Of a DNA stretch of 64,000 nucleotides, positions 15,285 through 56,000 are shown in pieces (position 1 is the first letter of the stretch; each line of letters opens with the position of its first letter). The position numbers were made by a program, and so were the translations under genes. The notes below the pieces were generated by a model, which ran no database searches, was not told where the DNA came from, and saw only the letters and a program-made list of their open reading frames with translations. This stretch comes from a virus (taxonomy: Duplodnaviria; Caudoviricetes): the IMG/VR virus record IMGVR_UViG_3300046776_000001, positions 939 through 64,938 of that record; one strand, given 5' to 3'.

Positions 15285-16127
15285 TTAGTTTCTGTTGTTT
15301 AATTGTTTGCGTTCGTATTCGTCGTTTCCGCCCTTATGTTTAAAAAACCCGCCGCTATTAGGTTTTGCATTAGGAATAACAAAAGAAGCAAGCCACGATA
15401 TTGCGTATACTAGTCCGTAAAATATTAAAACCTTTGCAGGTAATGGCATGTCCCACGCGCTTGCATCAAACAACCATTTAAGCAGGTAAAATGATGCAAC
15501 TATACTAACTATTATAAACAGCACAAAAGATGCGCCCCTTTGCATATGTAGCAAAACATTATCGTACCATTTACCCGTATGCTGGTGTTCTAATTTTGCA
15601 ATCATGCTCCAAAGTAGGGCAACAAAACCAATACTAAGTATAGGCCATAGCATGTATTCAAATAGGCCAAAAAAATAGCCCCACGCTGTGCCAAATGTTT
15701 TGGAAATATCGTCATACCCTTGTTTCACTCCGTCCGCACCTCGTTTCATCGTTGCGCTGTCTGCCATTGTCGCAAAAGTGCGGCGCGGTTTTTCATCACC
15801 AAAAAGCGGCTTTACCCCTTCCTTTGTTTCGGCGGTTGGCTGCGTTGCGCCTTGCACCGTCTTACCGTTCACTAAAATATATTTCAATTTTCCAAACGAC
15901 ACATCGTTTTGAAAAAAACCGCCGCTTTTAAGGATAGTTTCAAACGACTGATTACCCGCGCTTTTGCGGTTTATTTGACCGCCGTGGTAGTGAAATTCAA
16001 CCACGCCCGCTGGTTCGCAAAAGGCAGGAATACCGCCAAAATACTTTTGTAGTGCGTCTGTTTTGGACTGTGAAAAAATGGCGATGCTGCACATCATTGC
16101 AGCAATCAAGATTAAAATATTTTTCAT
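15285..16127 (-). CDS. signal-peptide protein with 3-4 C-terminal TM helices
   Basis: MKNILILIAAMMCSIAIFS|Q; hydrophobic helices in the C-terminal half. Confidence 0.75.
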   Translation of the reverse strand: MKNILILIAAMMCSIAIFSQSKTDALQKYFGGIPAFCEPAGVVEFHYHGGQINRKSAGNQSFETILKSGGFFQNDVSFGKLKYILVNGKTVQGATQPTAETKEGVKPLFGDEKPRRTFATMADSATMKRGADGVKQGYDDISKTFGTAWGYFFGLFEYMLWPILSIGFVALLWSMIAKLEHQHTGKWYDNVLLHMQRGASFVLFIIVSIVASFYLLKWLFDASAWDMPLPAKVLIFYGLVYAISWLASFVIPNAKPNSGGFFKHKGGNDEYERKQLNNRN

Positions 16128-19914: not shown

Positions 19915-20130
19915 TTATATATACATTGACCCTTTTTGGTTTTTTAGTTCGTGAAAATTATGATACTCTATGCATTCGACCAATGTATCTATTACGCTTT
20001 GTGGCGCAACAGACGAGAATTGCCTTAAATACCGTTGAGCCGTCCGGTATGCCGTTTGGCAGCATCTAATATTGCCGCCGTTCCAGTTTTTGCAAAATTT
20101 ACTTACCGTTTCTAGTGATGTATTTGCCAT
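19915..20130 (-). CDS. hypothetical phage protein
   Basis: 71-aa ORF behind a promoter cassette. Confidence 0.7.
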   Translation of the reverse strand: MANTSLETVSKFCKNWNGGNIRCCQTAYRTAQRYLRQFSSVAPQSVIDTLVECIEYHNFHELKNQKGSMYI

Positions 20131-20146
20131 GATCTTTAAAATTTAA

Positions 20147-20288
20147 AAGTGAGTGAATAAATACGCTTACCGCGTTTTGATAGGTCAAAGATAAGGGTGT
20201 TTTGTATTAAAGTGGTAACATTTAATCAATTATTTTTGATTTTTATTTTTCAGAAATAATTGAAAATTCACAAAGTATTGATAATGAA
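20147..20288 (-). promoter_or_regulatory. Early promoter cassette (TATCTTTG 20186-20193; operator 20248-20265; TTGATAATGAA 20278-20288)
   Basis: First about 47 bp identical to the cassette at 28400. Confidence 0.8.
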
Positions 20289-20362
20289 TAAAATGCCCGT
20301 CAACTTTACAGCGTCGGGGCATGATTGAAAAATCCAAATTCGATTTCTTTATTGGTGTGTTG

Positions 20363-20845
20363 TTATGAAAACTCTACTACTCCTTTGTGTTCAACCGCTG
20401 CCTTGAAAATATCGTGCCATTTTTCATATCGTTCACTCATTACGGCGTTGTCCGATTTTTTGGCCTTTTCTGCGTAAAGATCAAAGTCGCTCAATATTTT
20501 TTCTGATACCTCCCAGTCTAAGCACCCCTCATTGTCGGCAAAGTCTATTAGATCAAAAAACGGCAAACTATTTTCTGTGTATATTTTCTCATAGTCAACT
20601 TTGCCATCTTCACATAGCAAATCCTGCCTACCTGCAATACTCAAAAGAAAGCCCCTGAAAAGGCCATGAAATCCATAACCACAATCAATACCGACATTCT
20701 CAATAAATTCACCTTCATAGGCTTGATTGTAAATTAAGTTTTTTACTTTCCATTTCCAATTTTCACTTGCCACATAGGCCACAAAATTAGCATCTTCATC
20801 GCTGCATGGCTTTATGTTTTTATAAACAGATACTGATAATCCCAT
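20363..20845 (-). CDS. hypothetical phage protein
   Basis: 160-aa ORF. Confidence 0.75.
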   Translation of the reverse strand: MGLSVSVYKNIKPCSDEDANFVAYVASENWKWKVKNLIYNQAYEGEFIENVGIDCGYGFHGLFRGFLLSIAGRQDLLCEDGKVDYEKIYTENSLPFFDLIDFADNEGCLDWEVSEKILSDFDLYAEKAKKSDNAVMSERYEKWHDIFKAAVEHKGVVEFS

Positions 20846-29592: not shown

Positions 29593-31047
29593 CTAATTTT
29601 TTGGAAAGTGCCGCAACTGGTCATTTGTCCATGTTACTACATTGCCGTTACTGTCGCTTCCTGTTATTCGAGTGACGTTAATATTTAACTTTGTCTTATA
29701 CTGCGTATAGACTAGCAATTCTGCAAAGTAGGCCGACCAGTACAGCGCGTCCGCAAAGTCCGAACCCTGAGCAAGTACAAGCCCCCTGTTGGCAAATACA
29801 AGCGTACTAAACGCATCGGTAATTCTTTTGCGCTCTACGTCTGCATTGGTATTGCTATTTACAGATAGTTCAATTTCGGAAATTGTCACAAATTTGGTAC
29901 TATTCGCCTTGATTGTTTTACTGCTTAGTCTTTGTATTTGCGGTATGGCAGACGGCACTTGCTTCCTAGGTAGCGGCGTACTAGGTAACGGTATATTTTC
30001 GCCCCAATACATTTTATAGTCGTTTTTAAAACCTAGCGTGTAAATTCGTATTGGGCGCACCGGATCGCCCGGTGGTGTTGGCGGTGGCGTTGGCGGTACA
30101 ACCGTGCCGGGTCTAGTATTTAAAACCGCCTCTATTAGTGCGATACCGTACCCAGTACCGTTATCTTTGCCCGTCGGTGCTATGTCCCTAGAAACAGCCG
30201 CTAAATACGTTTTAACCGCCGTGTAATTAGACAATAAATCACCCCATTTAGATATTGCAATAGCGACCACGCCCGACAAAAAAGGCGTTGCCATGCTTGT
30301 ACCGCTTATTGTAGCGTATTGATTATTTAACCAGCAACTTTGAATACTTCGCCCCGGCTGCGCGTTCCACACCTGTACGCCTTGTGTGCTGTATGACGAA
30401 CGACCGCCTGATTGATCGAGCGAAGCGCACGTAATTGAGTACTGAGACGAACCCGGGTATTGTACGCCTTCGCCGCCTGTATTACCCGCTGCAATGCAGT
30501 ACACGCCGCCCAAATCTGTTATTGCTTTCATTGCCGCCTCCACGTTACCAATAGCCGCCGTGTTGCCGCCAAACGAGCCTGAAACAACCGTGCGTATTCC
30601 TGCTGCTTTTCTTGCTCTATCTTTCGAAAGTTGATCTACCTCGCACAACCTAAACCACTCGAAAGAGCCGCCGCCCGTTGCCCCTAAAATCTGGTCAAAC
30701 TCGAAAGTAAGAACGCCCGACTTTACAAGGTCGAACGCAATGCCAAAATCCTGCGCAAAGATAATTCCGCCCACGTGCGTACCGTGTCCGTTGCGATCAA
30801 TGCCCCGAGCATCGGTGGTGTAATTAAACCCCGCCTGTTTGCCCTGCTGCAATTGCGCGTGGTCGGTATCCATTGCGGTATCAACTACCCTAATATGTAC
30901 CTTGTTTTTGCATTCCGCTGCAATGCGATTACGGAGCGCGTTTAGTTTGTGCTGTTCCGCACCCCAATTCGATACTAATACCCGTGTGCCGTCCCGTTTA
31001 GTTACACCGCTTTCGATGTTTTGCGGAAATTCACCGGGCTGGGGCAA
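29593..31047 (-). CDS. S8 subtilisin-family serine protease (frame open upstream to 31197)
   Basis: VVDTAMD, NGHGTHVGGII, AAGN, ISGTSMATP catalytic motifs; Pro-rich linker and C-terminal domain. Confidence 0.9.
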   Translation of the reverse strand: MPQPGEFPQNIESGVTKRDGTRVLVSNWGAEQHKLNALRNRIAAECKNKVHIRVVDTAMDTDHAQLQQGKQAGFNYTTDARGIDRNGHGTHVGGIIFAQDFGIAFDLVKSGVLTFEFDQILGATGGGSFEWFRLCEVDQLSKDRARKAAGIRTVVSGSFGGNTAAIGNVEAAMKAITDLGGVYCIAAGNTGGEGVQYPGSSQYSITCASLDQSGGRSSYSTQGVQVWNAQPGRSIQSCWLNNQYATISGTSMATPFLSGVVAIAISKWGDLLSNYTAVKTYLAAVSRDIAPTGKDNGTGYGIALIEAVLNTRPGTVVPPTPPPTPPGDPVRPIRIYTLGFKNDYKMYWGENIPLPSTPLPRKQVPSAIPQIQRLSSKTIKANSTKFVTISEIELSVNSNTNADVERKRITDAFSTLVFANRGLVLAQGSDFADALYWSAYFAELLVYTQYKTKLNINVTRITGSDSNGNVVTWTNDQLRHFPKN

Positions 31048-31124
31048 AATCTCGAAAGTATCCTTTTCAAGTTGCTGAACCTGCTCTATGTACGCGCTCC
31101 GTAAATTCCTGTTAGTCTGCCCGC

Positions 31125-31580
31125 TTAAATTAGGGCAAAAAAAAACAGTACAAAAATTGTCGTAACTGCTGCGGGCGTTTTGGGTAGTTGCGCGTTTTTA
31201 AACACGTTCCACAAAATTGTAGCCAAACTTATTAACGCTGTTAAAATTCCCTGCCAGTTACCGCCAATTCCGGCTTCTATCGCCGCCCGTAACGCTGTAA
31301 AAACATCGGGCGTTAAAACAGGGAACAGTGCAATAAAGATAGTAGAAAGGTAGTTCCACGTGTTAGAATTTTGTATCCATTTAACGGGCGAAAACTCTGC
31401 CGTTTTAAAGAATACTCGAAACGCGCCCACGCTACCAATTAAGGTAAACAAAGACGCAACGACCTTTTCTGCTTCGCCTTTTGGAAAACCTACGAATAGG
31501 CCACCGATCAAAAGCTTTAATGTTTCGCCCGTTAGTGGGGTTTTTACGGGCGTTGCTCCGCCTCTTTTTTTGTCTGTCAT
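31125..31580 (-). CDS. holin-like multi-TM protein
   Basis: 4-5 hydrophobic helices; lies in the lysis cassette. Confidence 0.55.
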   Translation of the reverse strand: MTDKKRGGATPVKTPLTGETLKLLIGGLFVGFPKGEAEKVVASLFTLIGSVGAFRVFFKTAEFSPVKWIQNSNTWNYLSTIFIALFPVLTPDVFTALRAAIEAGIGGNWQGILTALISLATILWNVFKNAQLPKTPAAVTTIFVLFFFALI

Positions 31581-31584
31581 AATA

Positions 31585-31845
31585 TTATTTAGATTTTTTC
31601 CTACTTTTCGCAGGCTGTGAAAAACTTTCTAGTGTTGCCTGCATTTCCGCTACCTGTATTGATAGGTTTAGGCGGTCGCTTTCGCATATATGCAAGCGGT
31701 TAGCAACTAACTGTATTTCAGACCTCAATTCCGTCTTTTGTTCTTTTAGTTGCTCGTTTAAATACCAAACTAAAGCACATAGCAGCACCACTATAATACT
31801 TTGTTCTAATATCTTTTTTTGTAATTCCGTCATTAGTTGAATCAT
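31585..31845 (-). CDS. single-TM coiled-coil lysis-cassette protein (holin/i-spanin-like)
   Basis: N-terminal TM followed by a coiled coil. Confidence 0.5.
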   Translation of the reverse strand: MIQLMTELQKKILEQSIIVVLLCALVWYLNEQLKEQKTELRSEIQLVANRLHICESDRLNLSIQVAEMQATLESFSQPAKSRKKSK

Positions 31846-31898
31846 TACAGCACGGTCGTTTTATTACTTACTGTAATATAAAAACCGTGCCAAATTTT

Positions 31899-32231
31899 TT
31901 ATTTAACTTCTAAGTGCTTGACTTGTTCGCGCAAATTAGCCGCAACAATGTTGCGTAATTTAATCGCGCCTTTGAATTTAAACTTTAGACAATCCTTCTT
32001 TATCACTTCTTTTCCGTTTGTGACATACCTGCGACCTATGCAAGCCGCAAGACGGAACGTTCCTATGTCGTCAAGGACAACGGCGTTAACGCCTTTGCCC
32101 GCCGCCTCGGCAATGTTCTGAAACGCTAAATTTATAACGTCGCGCAAAACATCCTCGTCAAGTCCTGTTTGGCTTTCGAGGCGTTTTGCTAGGTCGGTTA
32201 AATCATAATAACCTTTTACTAATTCACTCAT
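31899..32231 (-). CDS. HU/IHF-family DNA-binding protein
   Basis: V.L..IGTF.L....GRRY......I.....LKFK....L pattern. Confidence 0.7.
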   Translation of the reverse strand: MSELVKGYYDLTDLAKRLESQTGLDEDVLRDVINLAFQNIAEAAGKGVNAVVLDDIGTFRLAACIGRRYVTNGKEVIKKDCLKFKFKGAIKLRNIVAANLREQVKHLEVK

Positions 32232-32236
32232 AATAG

Positions 32237-32710
32237 TTATTTTTTATTGTTATTTAATCTTGTGTATTTTGCGCTTCCGTCTTTGCGCCTTGTTGCAATT
32301 ATCGCGCTTTGTCGGTTTTTGCGGCGTGTTGTGTACGAAATATGTACCCAATCGTCAAACTCCTGTATGACTTGATCGAACACGATACCCGATGCAAGTA
32401 TAAATTCAAACAATTGTTGCGGCGTGTAACCTTTTGCGTGTATGTCTGCTGCCTCACCTCGTAAATGCTGCGAATTTGGCGCACCCCTTATTTCTTTATG
32501 CGAATTTAACGCCCTACACCTAAACCCGCTCGAAATCCGAACAGGTACGCCCAACTTGTCGCGTAAGGGCTGTAAAACGTTTTTGCATAAAGCGGTTAAA
32601 GCGGCTAATTGTTTTTCGTTTGGGACGTTTTCTATTCCTTCACGTGCTGCAATGTCGCTATGTATCATTTCGCGCAAACTGAAATTTGCGGTAATCATTA
32701 TGTCTGTCAT
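32237..32710 (-). CDS. endolysin, peptidase M15 family
   Basis: NFSL.E, SGFRC..LN, SQH..GEAADI, DQVIQE..WVHISY. Confidence 0.9.
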   Translation of the reverse strand: MTDIMITANFSLREMIHSDIAAREGIENVPNEKQLAALTALCKNVLQPLRDKLGVPVRISSGFRCRALNSHKEIRGAPNSQHLRGEAADIHAKGYTPQQLFEFILASGIVFDQVIQEFDDWVHISYTTRRKNRQSAIIATRRKDGSAKYTRLNNNKK

Positions 32711-32715
32711 AGTCT

Positions 32716-34272
32716 TTATTTGCTGAAAATTATAACTACATACCCAGCACCGCCATTTCCGCCGCGACCCGATGCAAACCCGTTAACGGATGCCGCTCCG
32801 CCGCCGCCGCCGCCGCCCTGCGTAGCATCTCCACCCCTGCCAGCCGCCGCTACTGCATTAGATCCGCCGCCGCCCGCGCCTGGTCTTGCGTACGAAAAGC
32901 CTGTTGACGCGCTCGGTAAACCGTCGTTTGTCCCTGACGCACCGCCAAGTCCGCCTACTTGCTGAGCCGCGTTACAAGAGCCACCGTTGCCGCCAGCCGC
33001 CGACGCATTAAAGGTCGATATGCCACCACCAGAGCCGCCGCCGCTTGCTCCAATTGCACTTACCGCCGCTGCTGGATTGCCTGATAATCCGGTTGTATTT
33101 GCCGCCGCGCCAGCACCGCCAGCAAACATTCCTATTGTTCCTGCCGCACCTGCTGATCCCGCCGACGTTGTTCCGCCGCTACCGCCTGAGCCGCCAATTG
33201 CAGATATAAAAATATTTGAAACGCCGCTCGACGTTGCAATAAAACTTGATCCGCCGCCCGCTCCCGAAAGTCCGTTGCTTGAAATTGTTGCTTGTGCTGC
33301 ACCGCCAGTACCACCAACCCCAACCCTAACAAAAAAAGACGTAGGGTTTCCAAGCATAGAAAGAGAAAAAGTTCCAAATGAAAGCGCGCCGCCGCCGCCG
33401 CCGCCGCCGCCGCACCTAGCACTACCCGCTAATCCTTGCCTACCAGAACCGCCGCCGCCGCCGCCGCCTACTACATAGGTAGTTGCTTTTTTTGCCCATG
33501 TCGGCACTGTTATTTCTGTTTCCGTTACTGCTGTGCTTAATATAATTGTTGTGTCTGTTATGCCGCCGCCGCCGCCCGTGCTTGTTACCGTTGCCACCCC
33601 TGCCGTCGTAGAAACTGAAATTCCAGAACCCGCCGCAATACTAATAATTGGTATCGTTACACCCGTGCCGCCTGAAATTCCTAAAGCCTGACCTGTTAAA
33701 GATAGGTTTTGATTAGTATTAGGCGCGGTATTTGATATTACATTAAAATCTGAAATTTCGATGCCGCTACCAGCCGTGTAAGACGCTCCACCGCCTGTAT
33801 TTGTTATTGTGCTTGTATTGTTTGTCGTAGAAACGGAAATTCCGCTACCCGCCACAATTGAAACAATTGGCAACGCCTGTTGTATATTTAATTGCAGTGT
33901 GCTATCTTCTACCCATGCCCCTATCTTTTGCAAAAAGTTTGCAGTCGGCTTTGTGGCCGTAAATGTGCCGCCTGTTCCTAAAAAATAGTCTTTGCCTTTT
34001 TCGAGCGCAAACCCTTGTAGTGTGCCGCCGTACGATACCTGTATTGTGTCATTCGCAGCAAACGCCGTATCTATTGCAATAGCGACCGCCGCGCTGTCTA
34101 TTTTTGTATTGCTTGCTCTCCATGCCTTGCCCGCTGTAATCCTAACAAGCGTCCAATTAGGGATTGCTTCGCCCGCCAAAATGGTTGTGACGTTGTTTGC
34201 CCCAATGATGCGTCTTTGTGCCGTTACCGAAAAGCAGCAAAAAAGAGCCAAAATAATAATGATGTACTTCAT
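32716..34272 (-). CDS. glycine-rich fibre-like protein with N-terminal signal peptide
   Basis: MKYIIIILALFCCFSVTA|Q; Gly-rich C-terminal domain ending GGAGYVVIIFSK. Confidence 0.75.
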   Translation of the reverse strand: MKYIIIILALFCCFSVTAQRRIIGANNVTTILAGEAIPNWTLVRITAGKAWRASNTKIDSAAVAIAIDTAFAANDTIQVSYGGTLQGFALEKGKDYFLGTGGTFTATKPTANFLQKIGAWVEDSTLQLNIQQALPIVSIVAGSGISVSTTNNTSTITNTGGGASYTAGSGIEISDFNVISNTAPNTNQNLSLTGQALGISGGTGVTIPIISIAAGSGISVSTTAGVATVTSTGGGGGITDTTIILSTAVTETEITVPTWAKKATTYVVGGGGGGGSGRQGLAGSARCGGGGGGGGALSFGTFSLSMLGNPTSFFVRVGVGGTGGAAQATISSNGLSGAGGGSSFIATSSGVSNIFISAIGGSGGSGGTTSAGSAGAAGTIGMFAGGAGAAANTTGLSGNPAAAVSAIGASGGGSGGGISTFNASAAGGNGGSCNAAQQVGGLGGASGTNDGLPSASTGFSYARPGAGGGGSNAVAAAGRGGDATQGGGGGGGAASVNGFASGRGGNGGAGYVVIIFSK

Positions 34273-34276
34273 GTCT

Positions 34277-35050
34277 TTAATTTCGTATGTAGTAATAAGC
34301 GGCACTTTTTGAAATGGCAGACGCGGCAAACGAAATGCCAAAATCTACTGCATAGTGCCACCATTTTTGATTTGCTTTTGCACCTCCAATGCCTAATGTT
34401 ATGCCGCCTGTTATATATCCAACTTTGCGCGTGTCGTCGGCAAAATGATAAAAATCATTTGCGCCCGTCCATTTTATAAAACCCGACTTAAATCCCTTTT
34501 CGGGATCGCCGCCCACATAAACAGATCGCCAACTTTCAGAACCCCAAAAACCTGTTTTACTTGCGTTCCATTTGCGCTCAAATGATGTGCGCCCGTCGTG
34601 TAGGTATCCCTCTAGTAATCCATCAAACGCGCTACCGACCGCAACCAATGACCAGCCTACTATTTTTGTACGGGTTATTTTGTATGTGCTTGCAACCGTT
34701 CGCAATTTGCGGACATCTTGCGGTTTTTGCTGTGGTGTAAGATCGCGGTAACCGTTCGGGTGAAAAGTGCGCGTTTCGGCTGTGATAAATAGGTCACGAC
34801 CGCCAACGCTTAAAGGCGTGTTCATTATATAACCGCCCGTAATTCTAGGCAATTCGCCTATGTAAACTAAACAGGTATCGCAATTCCAGTTTTCCGAAAG
34901 AACACCCGTACCGCCTTGTACTGTGTTGGTTTTACTGGTAACGACAATCGTGTCGTTACCAAAATAAACGCCGCCAAAAATTGGTTTTAATTCTTGCCCC
35001 TGTGCAGATGGGCTGCACAACAAAATAAGTATTGTTATGTATTTTTTCAT
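34277..35050 (-). CDS. signal-peptide protein with hydrophobic C-terminal segments
   Basis: MKKYITILILLCSPSAQG|Q; the track extension to 35176 overlaps the upstream gene. Confidence 0.7.
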   Translation of the reverse strand: MKKYITILILLCSPSAQGQELKPIFGGVYFGNDTIVVTSKTNTVQGGTGVLSENWNCDTCLVYIGELPRITGGYIMNTPLSVGGRDLFITAETRTFHPNGYRDLTPQQKPQDVRKLRTVASTYKITRTKIVGWSLVAVGSAFDGLLEGYLHDGRTSFERKWNASKTGFWGSESWRSVYVGGDPEKGFKSGFIKWTGANDFYHFADDTRKVGYITGGITLGIGGAKANQKWWHYAVDFGISFAASAISKSAAYYYIRN

Positions 35051-35051
35051 C

Positions 35052-36500
35052 TTAATAAAATGCGTTCCATGTTGTGCCGTCCCATCCTTCGTGCTTTCCC
35101 GTGTCTGTATTAAAGCCCCACGGGTATTCGCCGCTTGCTGGTGCTGGGCGTGTTGCTGTTGTCCAGACTGTTGCAAGTTGCTTTAACTTGTTTACGGTAT
35201 TTACGTCGGTTATTGCCTGTCCGTTACCTTTTATTTGCTCAGAATTGTCGTTATCATATAAAAGCCCACCCGCGCCGGATGGAGCATGTACATTAATAAA
35301 AATATCGTCTTTTATCCTACTTATCCCATATCTACCATTTATAGCCTCATTTGTAAAATCTGTATAAAGCGAAAATTCCCCAACATTTGCTTTTATATTA
35401 GACGTTCCGGTAATCTTATTTGTAGATATTGAAATTCCGTTTTCTGGATCATTTAAGAAAAAATACCCTTGCGGGTTGCCGTCTTTATCTGACTTTTCCC
35501 CCGAAACTGAATAAATAGCCCCTTCTGACGAAAAAAGACAACTTTGCGCTTCTGTAATTACACTTGTTGATATATTAAACCCGTTCGTTGACATTAAAAA
35601 AAGGCAGTTTGATACTCCTGTTTCCTCGCTAAGAAAAGATTGCTCTATTTGAGGAGGGGCAAATACTAATTCGTATTTTTGCCTATTACTTGAGCTTGCG
35701 TAATCCGCACCGTCAAAATCGTTAATTACAAAACTGTTGGATGTTTTTACGGTTGTGCCATTTGGCGAAGTGCCGCTACCGCCGTAAATTCCGCCTGGCG
35801 GCAATGTTACCGTGTTGCCGCTTGATATTTCCAAGTCTAAACCTGACAAAGAAAGGTTTTGCAGTTCATTTGAGGCGTTGCTGTCTCCGTCGTTAACATT
35901 TATATTTACCGTGCCGCCGCCGCTGCTTAGTGTAATATTCCCAGCGTTCCCATTTGTACTGAGCGTTTGTATTTCATTTGTAGGACTTGCGTCCGCGTCA
36001 TTTACGTTTAGGTTTAGTGTACCGCCTCCGTTCGATAAAGTGATATTCCCAGCCGCGCCGCTTGTACTAATTGTTTGGTTCACATTAGGCGCGGTATTAG
36101 AAATTACATTTGTTCCCGATATAGCAATACCGGTGCCAGCCGTATAAGTTGCTCCGCCGCCACCGTTTAACAATTTCCACGCCGCGCCATTCCAGTAGTA
36201 AAATTCCGGTTCTGTACAACCATTTACTACAAAATAGGCATTGTGAATTGTAGGCGTATAGGCAGGTGCGGCGCAACCGCTAATGCGTTGGATACGATCA
36301 CCGCTTTGAACCCAACTTGTGCCGCTTACCCATTCGTACCACCTAAACGTAGCGCGATCAACCGCAAATCGTGCGCCGCTTGCACCGGGGTTTGTTGTCG
36401 GTGCGCCATTCGTCCAAATAAAAGTACCCGTTTGCGCTTTGCAATCCTTTGCGCCCAATAAATTTACGATCAAAAAAATTGATAAAAAAAGTAATCTCAT
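35052..36500 (-). CDS. fibre-like protein with signal peptide and NEIQ/NELQ repeats
   Basis: MRLLFLSIFLIVNLLGAKDCKA|Q; C-terminal WTTATRP...GFNTDTGKHEGWDGTTW fibre motif. Confidence 0.75.
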   Translation of the reverse strand: MRLLFLSIFLIVNLLGAKDCKAQTGTFIWTNGAPTTNPGASGARFAVDRATFRWYEWVSGTSWVQSGDRIQRISGCAAPAYTPTIHNAYFVVNGCTEPEFYYWNGAAWKLLNGGGGATYTAGTGIAISGTNVISNTAPNVNQTISTSGAAGNITLSNGGGTLNLNVNDADASPTNEIQTLSTNGNAGNITLSSGGGTVNINVNDGDSNASNELQNLSLSGLDLEISSGNTVTLPPGGIYGGSGTSPNGTTVKTSNSFVINDFDGADYASSSNRQKYELVFAPPQIEQSFLSEETGVSNCLFLMSTNGFNISTSVITEAQSCLFSSEGAIYSVSGEKSDKDGNPQGYFFLNDPENGISISTNKITGTSNIKANVGEFSLYTDFTNEAINGRYGISRIKDDIFINVHAPSGAGGLLYDNDNSEQIKGNGQAITDVNTVNKLKQLATVWTTATRPAPASGEYPWGFNTDTGKHEGWDGTTWNAFY

Positions 36501-36504
36501 ATTT

Positions 36505-39102
36505 TTAGTTTCTTATTATTATGTTTAGTTTATAGGTTTGCCCTGCTGTTAGTGTGCCGTTTGCGCGTATGGTGTAACTACCCGTCGTTTGGGTATCTAC
36601 ATAAAATTTCGTTATCTCCGATGCGGTTAATTGGTTGGCTGCTGAAAAAACAACCGTCGGGGCAACGCTCCACGTATTTGGAAAAGTTCGCGTGTAAATA
36701 ACCGCGTTTGCCGTTGGTGCTGTGCCAACCAATAGCGTTACCGTGTATGCCATTTCCGCCCCGTTATTTACTGTTATTATAGGCGTTGATCCTAGTGCGC
36801 CGCCCGCTGTTAAAGAAACGCTTTGTGAACTATTAAGAACGTGCCAGTTTGCGCTTGCTGTCCTTGTTTCTAATCCAAACATACTACTATTGTATCTTAA
36901 CCACCTTAACGCGCTTGTAGGTCTGTTTCCTGTATTGCCGCTGCTTAATGCTATTCCGTCAGTCGTGTTGTCCATATCAATGGATGCCAATGGCGCTTCT
37001 TTATTTATGCCAAATTTTCCATCTGTTGTTATTGATAGCCCTGTTGCTCCGTCACCTAATTGGGCAAAAGGCTGCAATTTAAAACTGTTACCCTCTGATG
37101 AATTGTCAATACCGTGAATCCATTTTGTAGTCGCGCCTACCAAATTATATTGTACAGCCGGATCGCCACCAGCCGCCGCCGTGTTTACTTGTAAAATAGT
37201 GCTACCTGTTCCGCTGTTTTCTAATCTGTTTAGGTAGTTTGTCGTAGTTATGCCCGTTGTGCTGCCTGTTATATCAAGCCCATAAATAGTTTCACCAGCT
37301 GCCGCCGTTGCCGTTGCTTGTATTGTGCTCCCGAAACTTGGTAAAGTACCCGCGTTTACTTGTAATCCTACACTTGTGCTATTACCTGTAACATTTAAGC
37401 GACCCGCGCCCGGCGTTGCCGTGCCAACTGATAAATTAGATCCGTCAAATGCAAAATTATTTGTTGCTGTTATTGCATTTGTTCCGCTCCAATATGCTAC
37501 CTTATTTGCTATGCCTGTGCCTGTTACTGTGCCTGTTGCCGTGCTGCTTAGTGTGCCGCCCGACAAAGATAAACCCGCGCCTATTGTTGCGTTTGAAATA
37601 TCTCCGCTTGCATTTCGTAGCATTAAAGACGTGCCAGTACCGCTACTGCCTGTTATCCTTGCCGCGCCTTCAACGTGAAATAATTGAGCAGGGCTTAATG
37701 TTCCAATTCCAAAATTACCGTTTCCTAATATAACTGCTCTTTTGCTGCTATTCGTGCAAAAGAAAAACGGATTATTCCCATACTGAAAAATTGCACCGCC
37801 TGTACCCGTGCCTCCAAATAGCGAACTTTCTGCACCAAAAATAAAATTATTTGTACCGTCTTTTCTGAATTGAATGTATGAGCCATCTCCACCCGCACCA
37901 TTCCCGCCGTTTAGTATTAATCCCGCCAAAGACGCGTTATTTACCGTAAATCTACTACTACCTGTAACAGTTTTTGTTCCTGTAAAAAATGTTACTTGAT
38001 CGCCTGTTCCGCTGCCTGTTATATCGCCCTGCGGAATAGCAACCGAACCGCCACCGCCAGATAAAGAAAGGTTTGGTGCGGAATAGGAAAGAGTTTGATT
38101 ACCCGTATTTGTTCCGCTCAAATTTGCACCTGTAACGTTGCCAGATGCTGCTACTGATGTGGGTGTAATTGCGCCTAATCCTATGCTGATGTTGGGCGTT
38201 GTTGTGGCGTTTGCCACGCTTGCGGTAACGCCCTGCGTTGGCGTTACTGATACGCTCGTTACCGTGCCTTGCGGGATATTGAAAGACCCGCCGCTATTGG
38301 ATAGCGTTACCGTTGGCGCACTGTATGATATGGTTTGTATTTCGTTTGTAGGGTTTGCGTCCGCGTCGTTCACGTTCAAATTTAGCGTACCACCTCCATT
38401 GCTCAAAGTGATATTCCCAGACGCGCCCGTGGTACTGATAGTTTGGTTAATGTTAGGGGCAGTATTGGTTATTGTCAAATCCGTACCAGTTGCGGCCAAA
38501 GAAATAGATGCGCCAGCCACAAAATTAACATCCGTACCCGTTGAACTATTAAGCGTTACGGGTGAACTTGTACCTGTAAATGATAAGTTTGTGCCACCTG
38601 ACGCGCTAGGTGAAGTAATAATGTACTTTTGTGTAAGTGTATCAAAAAATACCGTTGTGCCACCCCTGCCTACAATCTTAATAGTGTCTAAGTAATTTAT
38701 TGCTGTTGTTCGTAAACTATCCGACGCAAAAAATGAAAAGTCAACATTTGCGCCCGCACAAAAAGTAGAATCAATAAAACCTGAAATTGTAGAAAATCCT
38801 GTTTGATTTAACGGTATAGTTATACGGTCGGGGTTTGTTCCGGTCTGCTCAATAAATTCTACCGAATTACCGGGGCGCAAACGGATTAAATACGGTTCAT
38901 CTATCCACCTATTAAAAACGCCTAAACGGTAAACCATTAGGCCATTAAAAGACCTGCTTTGAAAACTTGTACCGACGCAAATATCACAACTATCGCCTGT
39001 CATATTTGCATTGCTAAAACATTCAAATTCAAAAATAGGACTTTGCGCCTTTGCGCTCAATCCTAAAAAAATGACTATTAATGTAGTTACTATAAATCTC
39101 AT
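36505..39102 (-). CDS. long fibre/adhesin-like protein with signal peptide
   Basis: MRFIVTTLIVIFLGLSAKA|Q; GNFGIGT.SP...LHV repeats; SSGNTGNRP...LRYN motif. Confidence 0.8.
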   Translation of the reverse strand: MRFIVTTLIVIFLGLSAKAQSPIFEFECFSNANMTGDSCDICVGTSFQSRSFNGLMVYRLGVFNRWIDEPYLIRLRPGNSVEFIEQTGTNPDRITIPLNQTGFSTISGFIDSTFCAGANVDFSFFASDSLRTTAINYLDTIKIVGRGGTTVFFDTLTQKYIITSPSASGGTNLSFTGTSSPVTLNSSTGTDVNFVAGASISLAATGTDLTITNTAPNINQTISTTGASGNITLSNGGGTLNLNVNDADANPTNEIQTISYSAPTVTLSNSGGSFNIPQGTVTSVSVTPTQGVTASVANATTTPNISIGLGAITPTSVAASGNVTGANLSGTNTGNQTLSYSAPNLSLSGGGGSVAIPQGDITGSGTGDQVTFFTGTKTVTGSSRFTVNNASLAGLILNGGNGAGGDGSYIQFRKDGTNNFIFGAESSLFGGTGTGGAIFQYGNNPFFFCTNSSKRAVILGNGNFGIGTLSPAQLFHVEGAARITGSSGTGTSLMLRNASGDISNATIGAGLSLSGGTLSSTATGTVTGTGIANKVAYWSGTNAITATNNFAFDGSNLSVGTATPGAGRLNVTGNSTSVGLQVNAGTLPSFGSTIQATATAAAGETIYGLDITGSTTGITTTNYLNRLENSGTGSTILQVNTAAAGGDPAVQYNLVGATTKWIHGIDNSSEGNSFKLQPFAQLGDGATGLSITTDGKFGINKEAPLASIDMDNTTDGIALSSGNTGNRPTSALRWLRYNSSMFGLETRTASANWHVLNSSQSVSLTAGGALGSTPIITVNNGAEMAYTVTLLVGTAPTANAVIYTRTFPNTWSVAPTVVFSAANQLTASEITKFYVDTQTTGSYTIRANGTLTAGQTYKLNIIIRN

Positions 39103-39103
39103 T

Positions 39104-39727
39104 TTATACTATTGTTACTCGTTTTAAGAAACCGGGCAAGCCCGCCGTGCTGCTTTCGTTATGCCAAAACGGATCGTGATAAGATAGCCCGTCATCAATT
39201 GCGCTTTCGTCGCTGTCATACTCGGGTAGCGAATTTAATGCCTCGATTATTTGCGCGTCGGTTGGCGGTATGTACGCGTTTACTTGCACCTCTATTGTAG
39301 TTTCAGGAACTTCGACAATTAAATCACTTTCGCCGCTCCAAAAATTACCGCAACCGCCTCCGCAATCGGACGGCGTTGTACTTGCAAGCACAAAACAAAA
39401 TTGAACAAATGCCCGTCGTTCGTCATCTGTATCTGTTACCCACAAAGTGCCAAATACTTGCACGTCACCGCGACTATCAAACACAAGTGTATCACCCTCG
39501 ATGCCTAATAAAATAGAACCATTCGCCGCGCTAATTACTGTTATACCGTCACCAACCGACAAAGACTGAATAACAACACCGCCCGCCGTAATAATATCCA
39601 TATCAAAATCATAACCCGCAATATTTACAGGTAATGAATTTTGTGTGATAATTACAGGCAAAGGAATATCCGTACCCTGTAACGATCTTATTTTGACCTT
39701 TTGCGGTGCTATGTTTATAGTAGGCAT
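39104..39727 (-). CDS. baseplate/fibre adaptor protein (BppU-like N-terminal domain)
   Basis: Start MPTINIAP; Ig-like N-terminus; C-terminal LPEYDSD..A...GL motif; no signal peptide. Confidence 0.55.
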   Translation of the reverse strand: MPTINIAPQKVKIRSLQGTDIPLPVIITQNSLPVNIAGYDFDMDIITAGGVVIQSLSVGDGITVISAANGSILLGIEGDTLVFDSRGDVQVFGTLWVTDTDDERRAFVQFCFVLASTTPSDCGGGCGNFWSGESDLIVEVPETTIEVQVNAYIPPTDAQIIEALNSLPEYDSDESAIDDGLSYHDPFWHNESSTAGLPGFLKRVTIV

Positions 39728-39811
39728 ACTGGTATTTTTAAAACAAAAACCCCCGAACCCCAAAAAGCAATGAGGCGCGGGGGAGCAATGAACTACATTT
39801 TTTTATCCTAA

Positions 39812-43702: not shown

Positions 43703-44923
43703 TTAGGCCGGAACGGGACGTAAAATATGTGATGCCATTACGCACATTTTAGGGTCTGCAATTGCCGCGCCCCAGCGGAATGTAGTCGACATAAATACCT
43801 TGCCTTTATCCTCAAGGCTTGTTGACTGTTGAACAACCAATCCAGCACCAGAAAACAAGCGGTTTGAAACATCTTCCACGTTTGAAAGTACACCCCATGA
43901 ACCAGGCGTTACAATTGCAGCGCGGTGCGACTTAACGCCCGTAATTGCGTCAAACTCGGTGTTAGCCTCCCATGTAATAACAGGAAGCCCTTCCCAATCC
44001 ATTACATTTTTAGATATGCGTGTTGTGCCGTCCGACATTTCGATCAAGTAACGGTACGCCAACTCATTGGTTGGAGCCATGTCCTTAATATACTTTTTGT
44101 AGGCGTTAAATTCAGCGGTTGTAACCAAGATTACAGGCTTTAACATACGCCCGTCAACATTTACGCCCCGATTGATAGCGATTTTCAACTCGGGCGAAGC
44201 AGCATCAACAAGTGCTTCAAAAAGTTCTGTAATGTCGCCAACATATTTATCCGTTGCAATATCAATACCGCTTGCACCTGTTGCTATAACTAGGTTGTAG
44301 TACTGATTGTATAGGTCATCTTCTTTGAGCGCGTCCAATTGCGTGACTAAACCGCCGCAATCGCCGGACATTTGCTGACCGTAATAGTCAACCCATTCTT
44401 GCGTATCTACGGCATAAGTTCCGGTTGTGTTCACCTGCTCAATGATAGGGTGGTTTGCGAAGTTGTAAAGGTTAAAGAATGAATTACCTAAACCTAGGTA
44501 AATACGCTCTAGCATTAGACCCAAAACCTGTTGCGCCTCTGCACTATCTGTCAAAGGTGTTTGACTGCCCGGTGTAAACAAACGCTCAAAACAAGTGCCA
44601 TAGAAAGCGTCCGGACATTGTTCGCCGTCATACTCCACCGGACACGTCGGGAACTCGGAAATATTTAAACGGACACCGCCTTTAGGATTCCATGTACAAC
44701 CGTTTGAACGTGCGCCCAATAGGTGTTTTGGTGTTGTAAAGGACGCAAAACGCCCCTTTAAATCGCGTCCTAAATTGACCTCTGCATAGAGACCTAAGTC
44801 CCTTGCATCTTGGTCAAGATTTTTAACCGCAAAGTTTTGAAAAAAGCGCAACGCGCTTTCGGTTTGTAGTGTAATTTGTGGACCACTAGCCGATGTAATA
44901 GAAAAACCTCCCTCGAGTATCAT
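43703..44923 (-). CDS. major capsid protein
   Basis: 406 aa following protease and scaffold. Confidence 0.8.
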   Translation of the reverse strand: MILEGGFSITSASGPQITLQTESALRFFQNFAVKNLDQDARDLGLYAEVNLGRDLKGRFASFTTPKHLLGARSNGCTWNPKGGVRLNISEFPTCPVEYDGEQCPDAFYGTCFERLFTPGSQTPLTDSAEAQQVLGLMLERIYLGLGNSFFNLYNFANHPIIEQVNTTGTYAVDTQEWVDYYGQQMSGDCGGLVTQLDALKEDDLYNQYYNLVIATGASGIDIATDKYVGDITELFEALVDAASPELKIAINRGVNVDGRMLKPVILVTTAEFNAYKKYIKDMAPTNELAYRYLIEMSDGTTRISKNVMDWEGLPVITWEANTEFDAITGVKSHRAAIVTPGSWGVLSNVEDVSNRLFSGAGLVVQQSTSLEDKGKVFMSTTFRWGAAIADPKMCVMASHILRPVPA

Positions 44924-51326: not shown

Positions 51327-53030
51327 TTATTGGTTTGCGGGGTTTTGTACCGATATGTCAGACAAATATACCGTTGCTGTCATTTCTGCAAATTCGCCCG
51401 CTGAACTTATTTGAACCGTACCGGGGTCAATTATTATTTTCCTTGCAAATTCTACATCTCCGTTTACCTCTTTGATAAATTTAACAGGCGACAAAATAAA
51501 ATCTTGAAACCAATCAATGCTTTCTTTGCTATTGCTTAGTGCAGACGCTCTAATCGTTTTTGTTTCGTAGTTGCGAAGGTTTACAAGTGTGCGACCGCCC
51601 TGCTTGTTTGTTTTATCAAAGTCCCAAGCGCACGGAACGTATAAGTTAACCTCCGTACCTTCACGTGTAACGGATTGATCTACCACATCAACTACCATTG
51701 TGCTATACCCGCCCTGTGGTGTTAAAAAATATACGTCTGTTGACTTGTTGCAATCACAATTAATTGGAACGTATTTTAAAATTTCGGTTACGGACGCAAT
51801 CGGGTTATCTTCAAAATCTGTTAGTATTACCCTTACTGTGTAGTAATCATAAACACTAACGCCCGTAATATCCTCTACGTGACCGGGTGACGTATTGAAG
51901 CATATAGGATAAAACCACCTGTTAGGGTCGGTATTAGAATCCATTATAACGACATTGTCTGCTGCTTCAATTTCGCCCTCAAAATACACGGTAAAGGTTG
52001 CAGCCAATTTGTAATCTTCGCCAAACGTTTCAGAAAAATTATTAGTTAGCCACAACCACGAATAACTATCTTTGCATATCCTAATGCCGGACGGTTGCGA
52101 GGTTAAAAACTTTTGAAGTGTTTGTCCTTCCGGGTATCCGTCGGGGTGATTAAACCAGTAGCGACGCATTGCAAAAGGGTCATTTTTAGGGAATGCAGCG
52201 TTAATGCCTACCACATAAGCGGATCGCATAAAAGTACCAGAACGTGCCACACAATTATCCCTGTAAATCCAACCGTAATTTAGTTGGAAAACCTTCATTA
52301 AACTTTGCGCGTTATCTTCTATACTTACAAAAGAATCTATCGAAAGTTCGGGTAAAATAGTGTATAGTTGCCCCTCTATGTCGGTTCTGTAATCTATGCA
52401 AACAGGCGCAACAGAATCACAAAGGCGGTCAACCTCATGGCCTTCAAATTCCGTTACTGATAGCGGCGTATTTAGGTCGTTGTTATAAATTAACTGAGTA
52501 ACAACCTTAACGCCTGCTACATAAACAGGAGAAACGCCGTTTTCATACCCAACCGTTGCGCCTGCATCCTCGACCGCTGCCAAATCCATTGCCGCTACTG
52601 TAAAGTTTGCTTGCTCCCTGCAATCGTTCCACGTTATTGTTACCGTGTACGCGCTGCCATTGAAAGTTATAGTTTGCCGTGTTGCCCTAGCAAAAAACAG
52701 GTTACCGCGTATCATGTTTAAAAAATTCTCGGACGTTGTTTTGCCTGACGTTGTTGTCCTGAATGAATTACCCGTGAACGCAACGGAATTATTAATCGTA
52801 AAATCGTAGCCCCATATTTTAAACTCCGTACCCGGTGATACTACAATCGTGCTTAACGGGAACGTAGCAATTACAACCGCGTTTTCGCCCGCTGTTGTTA
52901 CCGCGTCTGCGTCGTCAAGTTGCAAGCACCACGTAAAACAATCCGATACCGGAACGGGTACGCCTTTAGGGTCGTCACTTGCAATTGCATCAATCGGGGT
53001 GCTTTGCGGTTCTGTTAGTACTGTTATCAT
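51327..53030 (-). CDS. tail protein (distal tail-like)
   Basis: 567 aa directly after the tape measure; DVYFLTPQGGY motif. Confidence 0.65.
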   Translation of the reverse strand: MITVLTEPQSTPIDAIASDDPKGVPVPVSDCFTWCLQLDDADAVTTAGENAVVIATFPLSTIVVSPGTEFKIWGYDFTINNSVAFTGNSFRTTTSGKTTSENFLNMIRGNLFFARATRQTITFNGSAYTVTITWNDCREQANFTVAAMDLAAVEDAGATVGYENGVSPVYVAGVKVVTQLIYNNDLNTPLSVTEFEGHEVDRLCDSVAPVCIDYRTDIEGQLYTILPELSIDSFVSIEDNAQSLMKVFQLNYGWIYRDNCVARSGTFMRSAYVVGINAAFPKNDPFAMRRYWFNHPDGYPEGQTLQKFLTSQPSGIRICKDSYSWLWLTNNFSETFGEDYKLAATFTVYFEGEIEAADNVVIMDSNTDPNRWFYPICFNTSPGHVEDITGVSVYDYYTVRVILTDFEDNPIASVTEILKYVPINCDCNKSTDVYFLTPQGGYSTMVVDVVDQSVTREGTEVNLYVPCAWDFDKTNKQGGRTLVNLRNYETKTIRASALSNSKESIDWFQDFILSPVKFIKEVNGDVEFARKIIIDPGTVQISSAGEFAEMTATVYLSDISVQNPANQ

Positions 53031-56000
53031 ATTTCAGTTAATTGTATTAGTTGTTGTTTGCGTTCGTTTGTTCTGTCTGCGTCATTTAGCCCCTGTGCAA
53101 TTGCGGAGTATGTTTCTTTCGCCACCTGTTCGGCAATAAAATAAACGCTTTCTTTGTCAATTGACGCTTTCGCCTCTATGTTTAAACTGCTTTGCGCCCT
53201 GCTTTGTGATGTGCTTAATGAAATGCCTGGTGCAGTAGAAAAACCGCCCGTTGCATATCCTGTGCCTGTTGACGCGCCGCGCTTTGTTCGCAGCCTGTCT
53301 AATTCCTTAAACAAACTAGGGAACATTTGAACCTGTGAACGCGGGGCAACATATTCATCTTCATGCAATTTTGCATCAACAACCCTTTCGCCCGTTTCAT
53401 CAACATACGCGCCTTTGCCTGTAAAACCACCGACAGCAAATTTTTTAGACGCAATTAATGCCGTAGTTGCCGCCGCCGCAATACCGGTTGCAATTGCTAA
53501 AGGGGGACTGTAAAGCACCCTAGCAACAGATAGTAAACCGTTTATTGTTGATTCAATCAATGCAATCCGTTTGCGTTCCCGTGCGGCCTCTTTTTCAATT
53601 TCATCCTTTTTAGTTGCGTATTCTTTGTCTATTGCCTCAAGTGCTTGCGCGTTGCCCTGTGCAAGTTCCCTTTTTTTCTCATACTCCTCATCTAGTGCGC
53701 TTAATTCTTTGTCTTTTTCGTCGTCAACTTTTCGCGCCTGTTCGCTTGCAATAGATTGTGTTAGTGCTATTGCGCTGTCAAACGCCGCGTTAATAAATGC
53801 CTCCCTTATTTCCTGTTTGCGCTTTTCAGCCTCCTCTTCAATTTTTAACTGTGCATCTACTTGCTCCTTTGTTAGTTCAATTTTCTGTTGATTAGCCGCC
53901 CTTATTAACTGATTTTTTATTTCCTCCGTTTCGGCTGTTGTCTCAATATCAAATTGAGAAAATTCGACCGCTGCTTCACGTTGCGCGTCCGTCAACTCCT
54001 TTATTTTTGCCTCGTCAGGTACACCCAATTCTACCGCCGCCTGTTTGCTGCCTGCTTCAATTTGTTGCTGATCGGTTAACGGTGCGGCTCTTAACCTATC
54101 AATACTATCCTGTAATGTTTTTAGTTCCTTTTCCGCTTGTGTTAGGTTGCCCAAAATCTTGGGTATTTGGTCAGGCTTTGCGGCTTCCAGTGACGCTTTT
54201 AAATCGCTTACTTTTTTCTCTAAAAAGTCAATACTACCAATTGCCGCGTCACGCTCTTTTTTTACCTTAATTTCAGACTTACTAAGTCCGTCGTTGTTTG
54301 CAATTATATCCTTTTGCGTTTTTGCAATAACCCTATTACTGTCTGCAAATTGGCGGCGGCGGTCTAGTTCATCCTGCTCTATGTCTGATAAATTATTTTC
54401 CCTATTGTTTGTAATAGCGGTAAAGTTTGCATCAACTTGTTTTAACTTATTTTCAAGTGCTGCAATATCGCCCTCAACTTGCGACCTTAAGGACTTGCGC
54501 GCCGCCTGTATTTCATCTACCTCAATAAGCCCCACATCCTTTGCAACACGCGCAACTTCGCCAAAAGTTAATTCACGAACAAAAGCCCGATCCGGCGTTG
54601 CGTCTAGTTGCACCTGCCTTACTTTCCTGTCTAGTATTTCTTGCTCAATTGCCGCTTTTGCTTGTATTTTTGACCGCTCAATTACTTGATCGCGTAACGT
54701 ATTTGTTAGGTCTTTTTGCAGTATAGTTAATTGTCCAATGCTTGCCTTTTCAAGTTCCTGTTGCGTTAATACGTCTGGGTATATTTTTAGCAAATTTGAT
54801 ATTGCTTGGTTGCGCTGGTCGCGGCTCGCTTTGTCGTTTTTTAGTACATTAAAGTTTTTTTCGGTATTGATTGTCTCTACTGCTAATTGCTTATTTGCAT
54901 CTTCTAACGACGTAGAAAGTATTTCATTCGCCGCGCTCAATCCTGTTGTTTTGCCCGAAAGGTTAAATATCTTATCTGTTGCAACTGCTACGCCGCCCAC
55001 AAATTCAGCAAGCAAATTGATGGCCTCACCTAATGATGAACTAAGTCGGCTATTTGTAAAAAGCGCGTTAAATGAATTAGATAACTTATCTATGCTTGCG
55101 CCAAACGTTGCGTTTTTCTTTTGGAACTCCTGCGTTATTGAATCGGTGTTACCTAGTGCCGTACCTGCTTGCGTTACGCGCTTACTAAGCAAATCCATAT
55201 TTTCGCCCAACTTACCTACGACCTCACTAACGCCCGCGCCGTCAACATCTAATGTTTTGAGCGTTTGAGATAGCGCGGTGTTGCTTAATTCCTTTGAATT
55301 TAATTTTGTGATAAATAACTGTAACGCGCCAAAAATGTCATCATTTACCAACTGTTTAAAATCCTGTGCAGGTTCATCTATTGCCGCCGCAAACGCCTCC
55401 GGTGCTGTTGCAAGTCGTTGTAATAGTCTAACAGATGCGGTACTGCCTCTTTCTGCATTAATGCCTAATTCGTCAAGTGTTGCAGATAGTCCGATTATTT
55501 TATTAGAGGTAACGCCCAAAGGCTGCGCCGCCCCTGCAATACGACCCGCAAAGTCTGCTGTTGCTGACGCACTCGACGCGCCTTGTGCTTCCAAAAAGTT
55601 GAGCGCGTTACCTATTCTTAAAATATCTTCACTAATCTTTTCGCTCTTAATGTCAGTAAGCACGTTGCGAAGTTTGCCTATTACCTCGGTCGTCTGTTCT
55701 GCACTACCTCCAAACTGGTCACCTAGTGCAACATTAAGCGTATCTACGCTTTCTGTAAAATCAAATAGTTCCGCTTTTGCAACCCCTAACTTACCGCCAA
55801 TTTCTGCAATACCTAGTTGATCTACTAAAGATGTTCGTGTGTTGCGCTGCTCTAAAAGGTCTGCAAGTGCCTGTATTTCCGGTATGGACGCGTCAGCCGC
55901 CTTTGCCACGTCCGCTATTCCGTCAGATGTTTTTGCATTTACATCATTAAATTTTGCAAACGCGCCCGTAACCGCTCCAATTGCTGCTGTTACGCCTAAA

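Follow-up and report, generated by a model that had tools for sequence, protein, structure and literature searches.

The central observation of this analysis is a cassette of four consecutive phage genes, three of which encode tail-fibre-like proteins and all of which begin with a predicted leader for the Sec export pathway of the host. The cassette occupies positions 32,716 to 39,102 of a 64,000-nucleotide stretch of DNA, referred to here as the window, which corresponds to positions 939 to 64,938 of the IMG/VR virus record IMGVR_UViG_3300046776_000001 (Duplodnaviria; Caudoviricetes) and represents nearly all of a 64,938-bp phage genome with genes almost all on the minus strand. We propose that many tailed phages of Bacteroidota, here siphoviruses, may send their receptor-binding fibres through the host Sec pathway, that these would be attached outside the cytoplasm at or after lysis, and that they would gain periplasmic chemistry, namely pyroglutamate, disulfides and, in some families, O-glycosylation. 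This reading is put forward tentatively, with a probability of roughly 45%, and its parts differ in strength: export and cleavage of the four proteins are, judging from their sequences, highly probable, and late, extracytoplasmic attachment of the fibres to virions is somewhat the likelier of the two fates considered. The four genes and their leaders are listed below.

36505..39102, minus strand: 865-amino-acid (aa) fibre-like protein; leader residues 1-19 (39046-39102), predicted cleavage after AKA and before Q
35052..36500, minus strand: 482-aa fibre-like protein; leader residues 1-22 (36435-36500), predicted cleavage after CKA and before Q
34277..35050, minus strand: 257-aa putative membrane protein (length from ATG); leader residues 1-18 (34997-35050), predicted cleavage after AQG and before Q
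32716..34272, minus strand: 518-aa fibre-like protein (length from ATG); leader residues 1-18 (34219-34272), predicted cleavage after VTA and before Q

An earlier note on this DNA had pointed to four consecutive genes with basic, hydrophobic and cleavage segments in front of a Gln, and all open reading frames (ORFs), lengths and N-termini are as quoted there. Each N-terminus starts with MR or MK(K), carries one or two basic residues and continues with 12-15 hydrophobic residues, while positions -3/-1/+1 are occupied by A/A/Q (865 aa), C/A/Q (482 aa), A/G/Q (257 aa) and V/A/Q (518 aa). The genes are tightly packed, each ATG lying 1-5 nt past the stop codon of the preceding gene, and an upstream alternative start is impossible for the 865- and 482-aa genes. 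Starts farther downstream, which the note had considered as a way in which its proposal could fail, are unlikely because the next in-frame ATG is codon 34 for the 865-aa gene and, for the remaining genes, comes only after codon 110. Because of the packing and the lack of plausible alternative starts, the leaders stand at the real N-termini of all four proteins. When a simple leader heuristic was applied to all minus-strand ORFs of the 64,938-bp genome, it flagged these four consecutively and few other genuine gene starts. A fifth leader-like N-terminus (MKNILILIAAMMCSIA...) belongs to a 280-aa protein at 15285-16127 of the window, in an early membrane-protein operon, and its predicted +1 residue is not Gln. 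Two other export signals were also considered. A lipoprotein signal for signal peptidase II was rejected, since the Cys residues of the leaders (AKDC, ILLC, LFCC) stand without a small -1 residue and without the lipobox context [LVI][ASTVI][GAS]C. A C-terminal sorting domain of the type IX secretion system (T9SS; Por_Secre_tail / TIGR04183 or type B) had no Pfam or NCBIfam match in the four proteins even at E<=1.

The leaders are strongly supported as genuine Sec/signal peptidase I (SPase I) leaders that obey the Bacteroidota Q-rule, because the homologue survey that the note had called for showed them to be conserved in hundreds of proteins from at least five phage lineages. The Q-rule, i.e. 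a Gln at position +1 of the SPase I substrates of Bacteroidota, has been published (Bochtler et al., 2018, PMC5837995; also PMC10653852). A search with the 482-aa protein yielded 419 homologues, and 107 of the best 120, which were read for the leader, have a leader-like N-terminus. For the 66 homologues with the same N-terminal domain, the count is 65 with Gln at +1 and 63 with Ala, Ser or Gly at -1. The column identity of this family is 43% in the leader as opposed to 61% over the following 93 residues, and Cys76 and Cys95 are present in 97% of the members. The 865-type family shows the same picture, with leader and Gln in 54/62 members, the remaining eight being either distant hits or genes whose calls are cut short because they begin at an internal Met codon; identity is 42% in the leader versus 71% in the mature domain, and Cys28, 39, 42 and 115 are conserved at 92-100%. 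At the level of viral loci recovered with the N-domain profile, leader and Gln stand at the gene start in 25 of 26. The sole exception (L033; the labels L001-L033 denote the uncultured viral contigs or loci used for comparison) is matched through its repeat region only; it lies in a baseplate cluster of the myovirus kind and encodes a fibre that has no leader. The property of being a leader is thus retained while the leader sequence itself drifts, a pattern not attributable to chance.

Both N-domains look phage-specific, as would be expected of virion anchors, because a scan of 185,579 bacterial species genomes found the N-domain pattern on just a single 3.3-kb contig and the 865-type family is restricted to contigs of at most 135 kb. 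The even number of near-invariant Cys residues is compatible with, though no proof of, folding in an oxidising compartment.

Hydrophobic N-termini need not serve Sec export. They could hold the proteins at the cytoplasmic side of the membrane while particles are assembled, be removed by a phage protease, or belong to one of two forms of which the leaderless one enters the virion. Such a role would agree with the textbook account of cytoplasmic assembly in every studied tailed phage, and the phage itself encodes two proteases, of the S49 and S8 families. Two forms are conceivable for the 865-aa gene, which has its in-frame ATG at codon 34, where some database gene calls begin; the 482-, 257- and 518-aa genes, however, have no internal ATG within 110 codons. 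A tether, in turn, would not need the specific signature of the Bacteroidota SPase I (Gln at +1 in 65/66, a small residue at -1 in 63/66), and whatever follows a signal peptide whose N-terminus stays in the cell would be translocated by it; the conserved, even-numbered Cys residues also fit an oxidising compartment. Mainly because of the SPase-I-specific residues at -1 and +1, we regard a role of the leaders other than export as highly unlikely.

According to the mechanism that we propose, the three tail-fibre-like proteins of the cassette would be modular receptor-binding proteins and the fourth an accessory membrane protein, and all four would be made as preproteins with Sec/SPase I leaders. 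Each leader would be cleaved before Gln, which the glutaminyl cyclase of the host would convert to pyroglutamate, so that the mature proteins would consist of a conserved Cys-containing N-terminal domain followed by swappable distal domains. The exported proteins would fold, and probably form disulfides, in the periplasm, while heads and tails would be assembled in the cytoplasm. Lysis by holin and endolysin would then merge the compartments, and only at this point would the fibres, as the likeliest outcome, attach to the finished particles via the conserved N-domain. The sequences themselves establish the leaders, their conservation, the position of the genes and their mosaic evolution; export, cleavage, folding in the periplasm and late attachment are inferred.

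The O-glycosylation motif D[ST][AILVMT] is unevenly distributed over the cassette. It occurs five times in the 518-aa protein against 0.87 expected (p about 0.0005), four times against 3.1 expected in the 865-aa protein, once in the 257-aa protein and not at all in the 482-aa protein. Family-wide, the observed/expected ratio is 3.3 for the 518-type N-domain, 1.09 for the 865-type and 0.51 for the 482-type. A general enrichment of the motif in the cassette therefore does not hold; it is confined to the 518-type N-domain family, and the 482-type is depleted.

The description of all four proteins as fibre-like stood for the 865-, 482- and 518-aa proteins and had to be revised for the 257-aa protein, which looks like a helical membrane protein. 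The fibre features that had been listed are present: the T.RP...GFNTDTG..EGWDG..W motif, the NEIQ/NELQ repeats and the Gly-rich tip of the 518-aa protein. The N-domain of the 865-aa protein reads Q..F.FEC..(x)GDSCDIC..SRSFNGL with four conserved Cys (28, 39, 42, 115) and is accompanied by NEIQ repeats, and its C-terminal 400 aa share 66% identity with a leader-bearing 771-aa protein of L006/L009. In the 482-aa protein, a conserved N-domain of ~115 aa (..YTNGAPT.., ISGC.AP.YTP, NGC) precedes NEIQ/NELQ repeats and the C-terminal T.RP..GFNTDTG..W motif, which in its longer form (T.RP...GFNTDTG..EGWDG..W) aligns with a C-terminal motif widespread among homologues. In these homologues the same leader and N-domain are joined to S74 chaperone, collagen, C1q, GDSL esterase or PTL_trimer domains (PF26696, precomputed tags); the 865- and 482-aa proteins themselves had no family match. 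The 518-aa protein is the only one in the cassette that matches a recognised tail-fibre domain, its Gly-rich C-terminal tip being assigned to PF21722 (E=1.8e-7) and to the minor tail family phrog_754 (E=5.7e-8), and its N-domain is 87-90% identical to that of 289-aa proteins of L009/L010, whose C-termini are unrelated. A full-library search with the tip gave 2,068 representatives; among the best 147, which were read, 46 have a Bacteroidota-type leader and Gln, some of them with a 482-type or 865-type N-domain, and 97 lack a hydrophobic leader. Some of the leaderless tip proteins start in a way that we take to be that of actinophage minor tail proteins. Sequence and profile searches of solved structures gave no meaningful relative, and the ESM Atlas returned weak leads with scores <0.9 for the fibre N-domain.

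The 257-aa protein looks like a leader-bearing helical membrane protein that accompanies a fibre gene and is not itself a fibre. It consists of a variable segment of ~100 aa and a conserved C-terminal module of 135 residues, which was modelled, at low confidence, as three long helices (AlphaFold2, predicted local distance difference test score, pLDDT, 45.4), and the proteins closest to it in the Atlas, from phages and Bacteroidota, are uncharacterised. Leader-bearing versions of the module with 153 aa stand directly after the fibre gene in L009, L012, L015, L016 and L017. A function as holin was ruled out and that of a fibre accessory preferred, because in L012-L017 the protein follows the fibre gene, far from any endolysin. 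A further small leader-bearing family of ~205 aa, with a mature start like Q..D(S/T)T(W/Y)..G.F(F/Y), stands directly after the 482-type fibre gene in many loci (L012, L016, L017, L021, L022, L024, L027, L029, L030 and L001:20215-20949, L001 being a 99% capsid relative). The window lacks this family, whose members could act as periplasmic partners or chaperones of the fibre. Another capsid relative, L002, encodes a leader-bearing 178-aa protein with a DGDSYKL motif at 20034-20570, after its leader-bearing fibres. We assume that this motif resembles that of staphylococcal nuclease, which would make the protein a possible exported nuclease.

The leader-bearing genes hold classic tail-fibre positions, and they do so in phages whose tail modules are unrelated to one another. 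In L018, L024, L029 and L006/L007 their place is behind the tape measure and a Dit-like phrog_33803 protein; in L012-L017 and L021 the tail-terminator gene stands on one side of them and the tail-tube gene on the other; in the window, as in L026 and L027, they come after the head genes. In L004, whose capsid and tail module are homologous to those of the window, the matching place after a phrog_1084 gene is taken by a tail fibre of the classic collagen-like kind, which has no leader (phrog_6320, E=2.5e-101).

The cassette evolves like receptor-binding modules, with a conserved N-terminal anchor and swappable distal parts. The DNA of L001 is 93-95% identical to the window over the head and tail genes, but collinearity breaks down within the 865-aa gene, at window position 38334, and beyond this point the match is patchy. 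Some homologues show 96-97% identity that is confined to the first 28% of the protein. On the level of sequence comparison, the whole block from the fibres to the S8 protease also appears to have been exchanged between phage lineages. The stretch 29593-36500 of the window (fibres, endolysin, HU-like, holin-like and S8 protease genes) has 85-95% protein identity to L009/L010, and the tail module of the latter, with its tape measure and an 859-aa phrog_33803-like protein, is unrelated to that of the window.

The same features bear on the second fate of the exported proteins, in which they would not belong to the virion but would act on the envelope of the infected or lysogenic cell: they could exclude superinfection by masking or destroying receptors, serve as adhesins, or dismantle the envelope together with an exported S8 protease. 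A transfer of the cassette as a unit between phages with unrelated tails is what accessory cargo would show, yet the genes stand within structural operons, in some lineages even between tail-terminator and tail-tube genes, and in L004 a leaderless classic fibre takes their place. The cassette includes a membrane protein and adjoins the lysis genes and an S8 protease with exported or membrane-anchored relatives, which suits an action on the envelope, whereas the distal domains of its fibre-like proteins are those of leaderless tail proteins elsewhere. Although distant leader-bearing homologues occur on megabase Bacteroidota contigs, the N-domains are practically restricted to phage-sized ones. 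Q-rule proteins of Porphyromonas prophages, for which no function is known, have been read as envelope modifiers (PMC10367356); the analogous proteins of Cellulophaga phages, in contrast, were detected in virions according to the tandem mass spectrometry (MS/MS) notes in GenBank. The 567- and 903-aa leaderless proteins in the window's own tail module speak for a role in the envelope as well. Taken together, we consider this fate, the main alternative to attachment to virions, rather unlikely.

Several points nevertheless weigh against attachment of exported fibres to finished particles. The two large leaderless tail proteins of 567 and 903 aa would be able to serve as receptor-binding proteins, so the phage may not depend on the exported ones. 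The AlphaFold2 model of the 482-aa protein has a mean pLDDT of 38.8, too low to confirm a fibre fold or disulfide geometry, and the four window proteins have no detectable sequence similarity to the Cellulophaga proteins, whose MS/MS signal in gradient-purified virions could, moreover, stem from co-purifying membrane vesicles. Finally, we know of no precedent for post-lysis fibre attachment among tailed phages, the assembly of which is, to our knowledge, cytoplasmic in all studied cases.

In the genome, the cassette is flanked by head-completion genes on one side and by the endolysin on the other. The surrounding genes are as follows.

59257-60678, minus strand late region: large terminase
53027-56443, minus strand late region: tape measure
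After the tape measure in the minus-strand late region: a pair of large leaderless tail proteins, both conserved (567 and 903 aa)
After the 567/903-aa tail proteins: S49 prohead protease, scaffold-like protein, then major capsid protein (43703-44923)
Between the major capsid gene and the 219-aa gene: several small head/neck genes
39104..39763, minus strand: upstream neighbour of the cassette, leaderless, 219 aa from TTG or 207 aa from ATG at 39727; weak phrog_1084 match
32237..32710, minus strand: M15 peptidase endolysin, leaderless; end of the fibre cassette
31899-32231, after the endolysin in minus-strand reading order: HU-like DNA-binding gene
31125-31580, minus strand: holin-like protein with multiple transmembrane segments
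29593-31047, minus strand: S8 subtilase

The 219-aa neighbour had been taken for a baseplate adaptor, an identity that the data do not bear out: what was found is a weak match to phrog_1084, a family whose function is not known. In L018 and L006, too, a member of this family is the direct upstream neighbour of the leader-bearing fibres, and in L004 one stands upstream of the collagen-like fibre that has no leader; a pairwise comparison of the 219-aa protein of the window with the 114-aa protein of L004 gave no significant match. Since the M15 endolysin has no leader, a holin is needed. The HU-like gene accompanies the leader-bearing fibre cassette in differing lineages (window 31899-32231, L012:4203-4517, L026:14071-14388, L030:10618-10947) and stays beside it even where the cassette is located between tail genes. 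The S8 protease of the window may be made as a membrane-anchored fusion, with a T9 run at 31137-31145, an idea supported by two relatives: a 522-aa S8 subtilase with leader and Gln in L022 (173-1741), and a single 679-aa ORF in L010 (15560-17599) in which a holin-like protein with multiple transmembrane segments is fused to the S8 protease. A scan for promoters and terminators gave hits that were no commoner than in shuffled sequence. By tblastn and blastn, neither the cassette nor the major capsid protein, nor any of the three cassette proteins (out of four) that served as queries, found a match among the deposited phages in INPHARED; relatives of the phage were found among uncultured viral contigs only.

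A widespread class of phages with conserved secretion signals on their host-recognition proteins would imply a maturation or attachment step outside the cytoplasm, and export would explain how phage fibres acquire periplasmic modifications of the host. If this is true, the expression and engineering of receptor-binding proteins of Bacteroidota phages, including those relevant to the gut and to aquaculture, would change, as the leader would have to be deliberately removed or kept. Annotation pipelines that count a signal peptide as evidence against a structural role in phages would mis-sort such genes; for the targets of diversity-generating retroelements, the lack of signal peptides has been taken as a sign of phage origin (PMC6199706). 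The cultured pairs of Cellulophaga phages and hosts make the question directly testable.

The Cellulophaga phages are also the known system that, by analogy, gives the best available support for incorporation of leader-bearing proteins into virions, and it is on this analogy that virion membership of the window proteins is suggested. In the siphovirus phi10:1 (KC821618), the tape measure gp087 and the phrog_33803 protein gp088 are followed by two small genes and then by gp091-gp095, all five of which open with a leader whose last residue is A, G or S and which is followed by Gln, and gp091-gp094 bear the GenBank note 'structural protein' with experimental MS/MS proteomics. The same combination of leader, Gln and MS/MS structural annotation is found for gp085-gp087 of phi18:3 (KC821620). 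The enzyme domain of phi10:1 gp093 recurs with 49% identity in gp052 of the myovirus phi4:1, an MS/MS structural protein with a leaderless N-terminus. Distant homologues of the tape measure, gp088 and tail tube of phi10:1 are present in L018, L021 and L024, all of them carriers of the 482-type N-domain, and gp094 is similar to the L029 fibre at the C-terminus of the latter (E=6e-6). Common to these phages and the window are, at an equivalent position, runs of consecutive genes with leader and Gln in phages of a Bacteroidota host, the run being located after the tape measure and Dit-like genes (phi10:1) or ahead of the lysis genes. They differ in that the window's four proteins are not recognisably similar to theirs, and the presence of the Cellulophaga proteins in the virion rests on the GenBank notes. 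The T9SS sorting domain is absent from the Cellulophaga proteins, too, and a literature search found no paper commenting on their leaders.

Leaderless fibres and minor tail proteins (Gly_rich_2 PF21722 / phrog_754; phi4:1 gp052) share tip and enzyme domains, modular mosaicism and gene neighbourhood with the cassette proteins but have no leader and are assembled in the cytoplasm. The PblA and PblB proteins of Streptococcus mitis phage SM1 are, as we understand it, tail-fibre-like phage proteins that likewise end up on the bacterial surface as adhesins. Unlike the cassette proteins, they presumably lack a signal peptide and reach the surface of a Gram-positive host through permeabilisation by holin and lysin.

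That such fibres can fold after export is illustrated by the mosaic adhesive trimer (MAT) fibres of Bdellovibrio bacteriovorus (Caulton et al., 2024, PMC10769870), which combine a signal peptide and a conserved beta-rich N-domain of ~130 aa with variable, phage-tail-fibre-like trimeric stalks, often with an S74 chaperone. Comparable modules (S74, collagen, C1q) are found in the homologues of the 482-aa protein. The MAT fibres are, however, cellular proteins of a predatory bacterium, displayed on its own surface, and no sequence match to a solved structure was found. The Q-rule substrates of Bacteroidota have the same tripartite n-h-c leader, small residues at -3 and -1 and Gln at +1, but those known are cellular periplasmic, outer-membrane or T9SS proteins, whereas the cargo here is phage tail-fibre-like (PMC5837995; PMC10653852). 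No paper describing leader-bearing tail fibres in tailed phages was found in a literature search. The Q-rule itself is already known; what the present case adds is tail-fibre modules with a probable export route in a siphovirus lineage, two defined N-domain families with their statistics, and a leaderless fibre as their positional counterpart.

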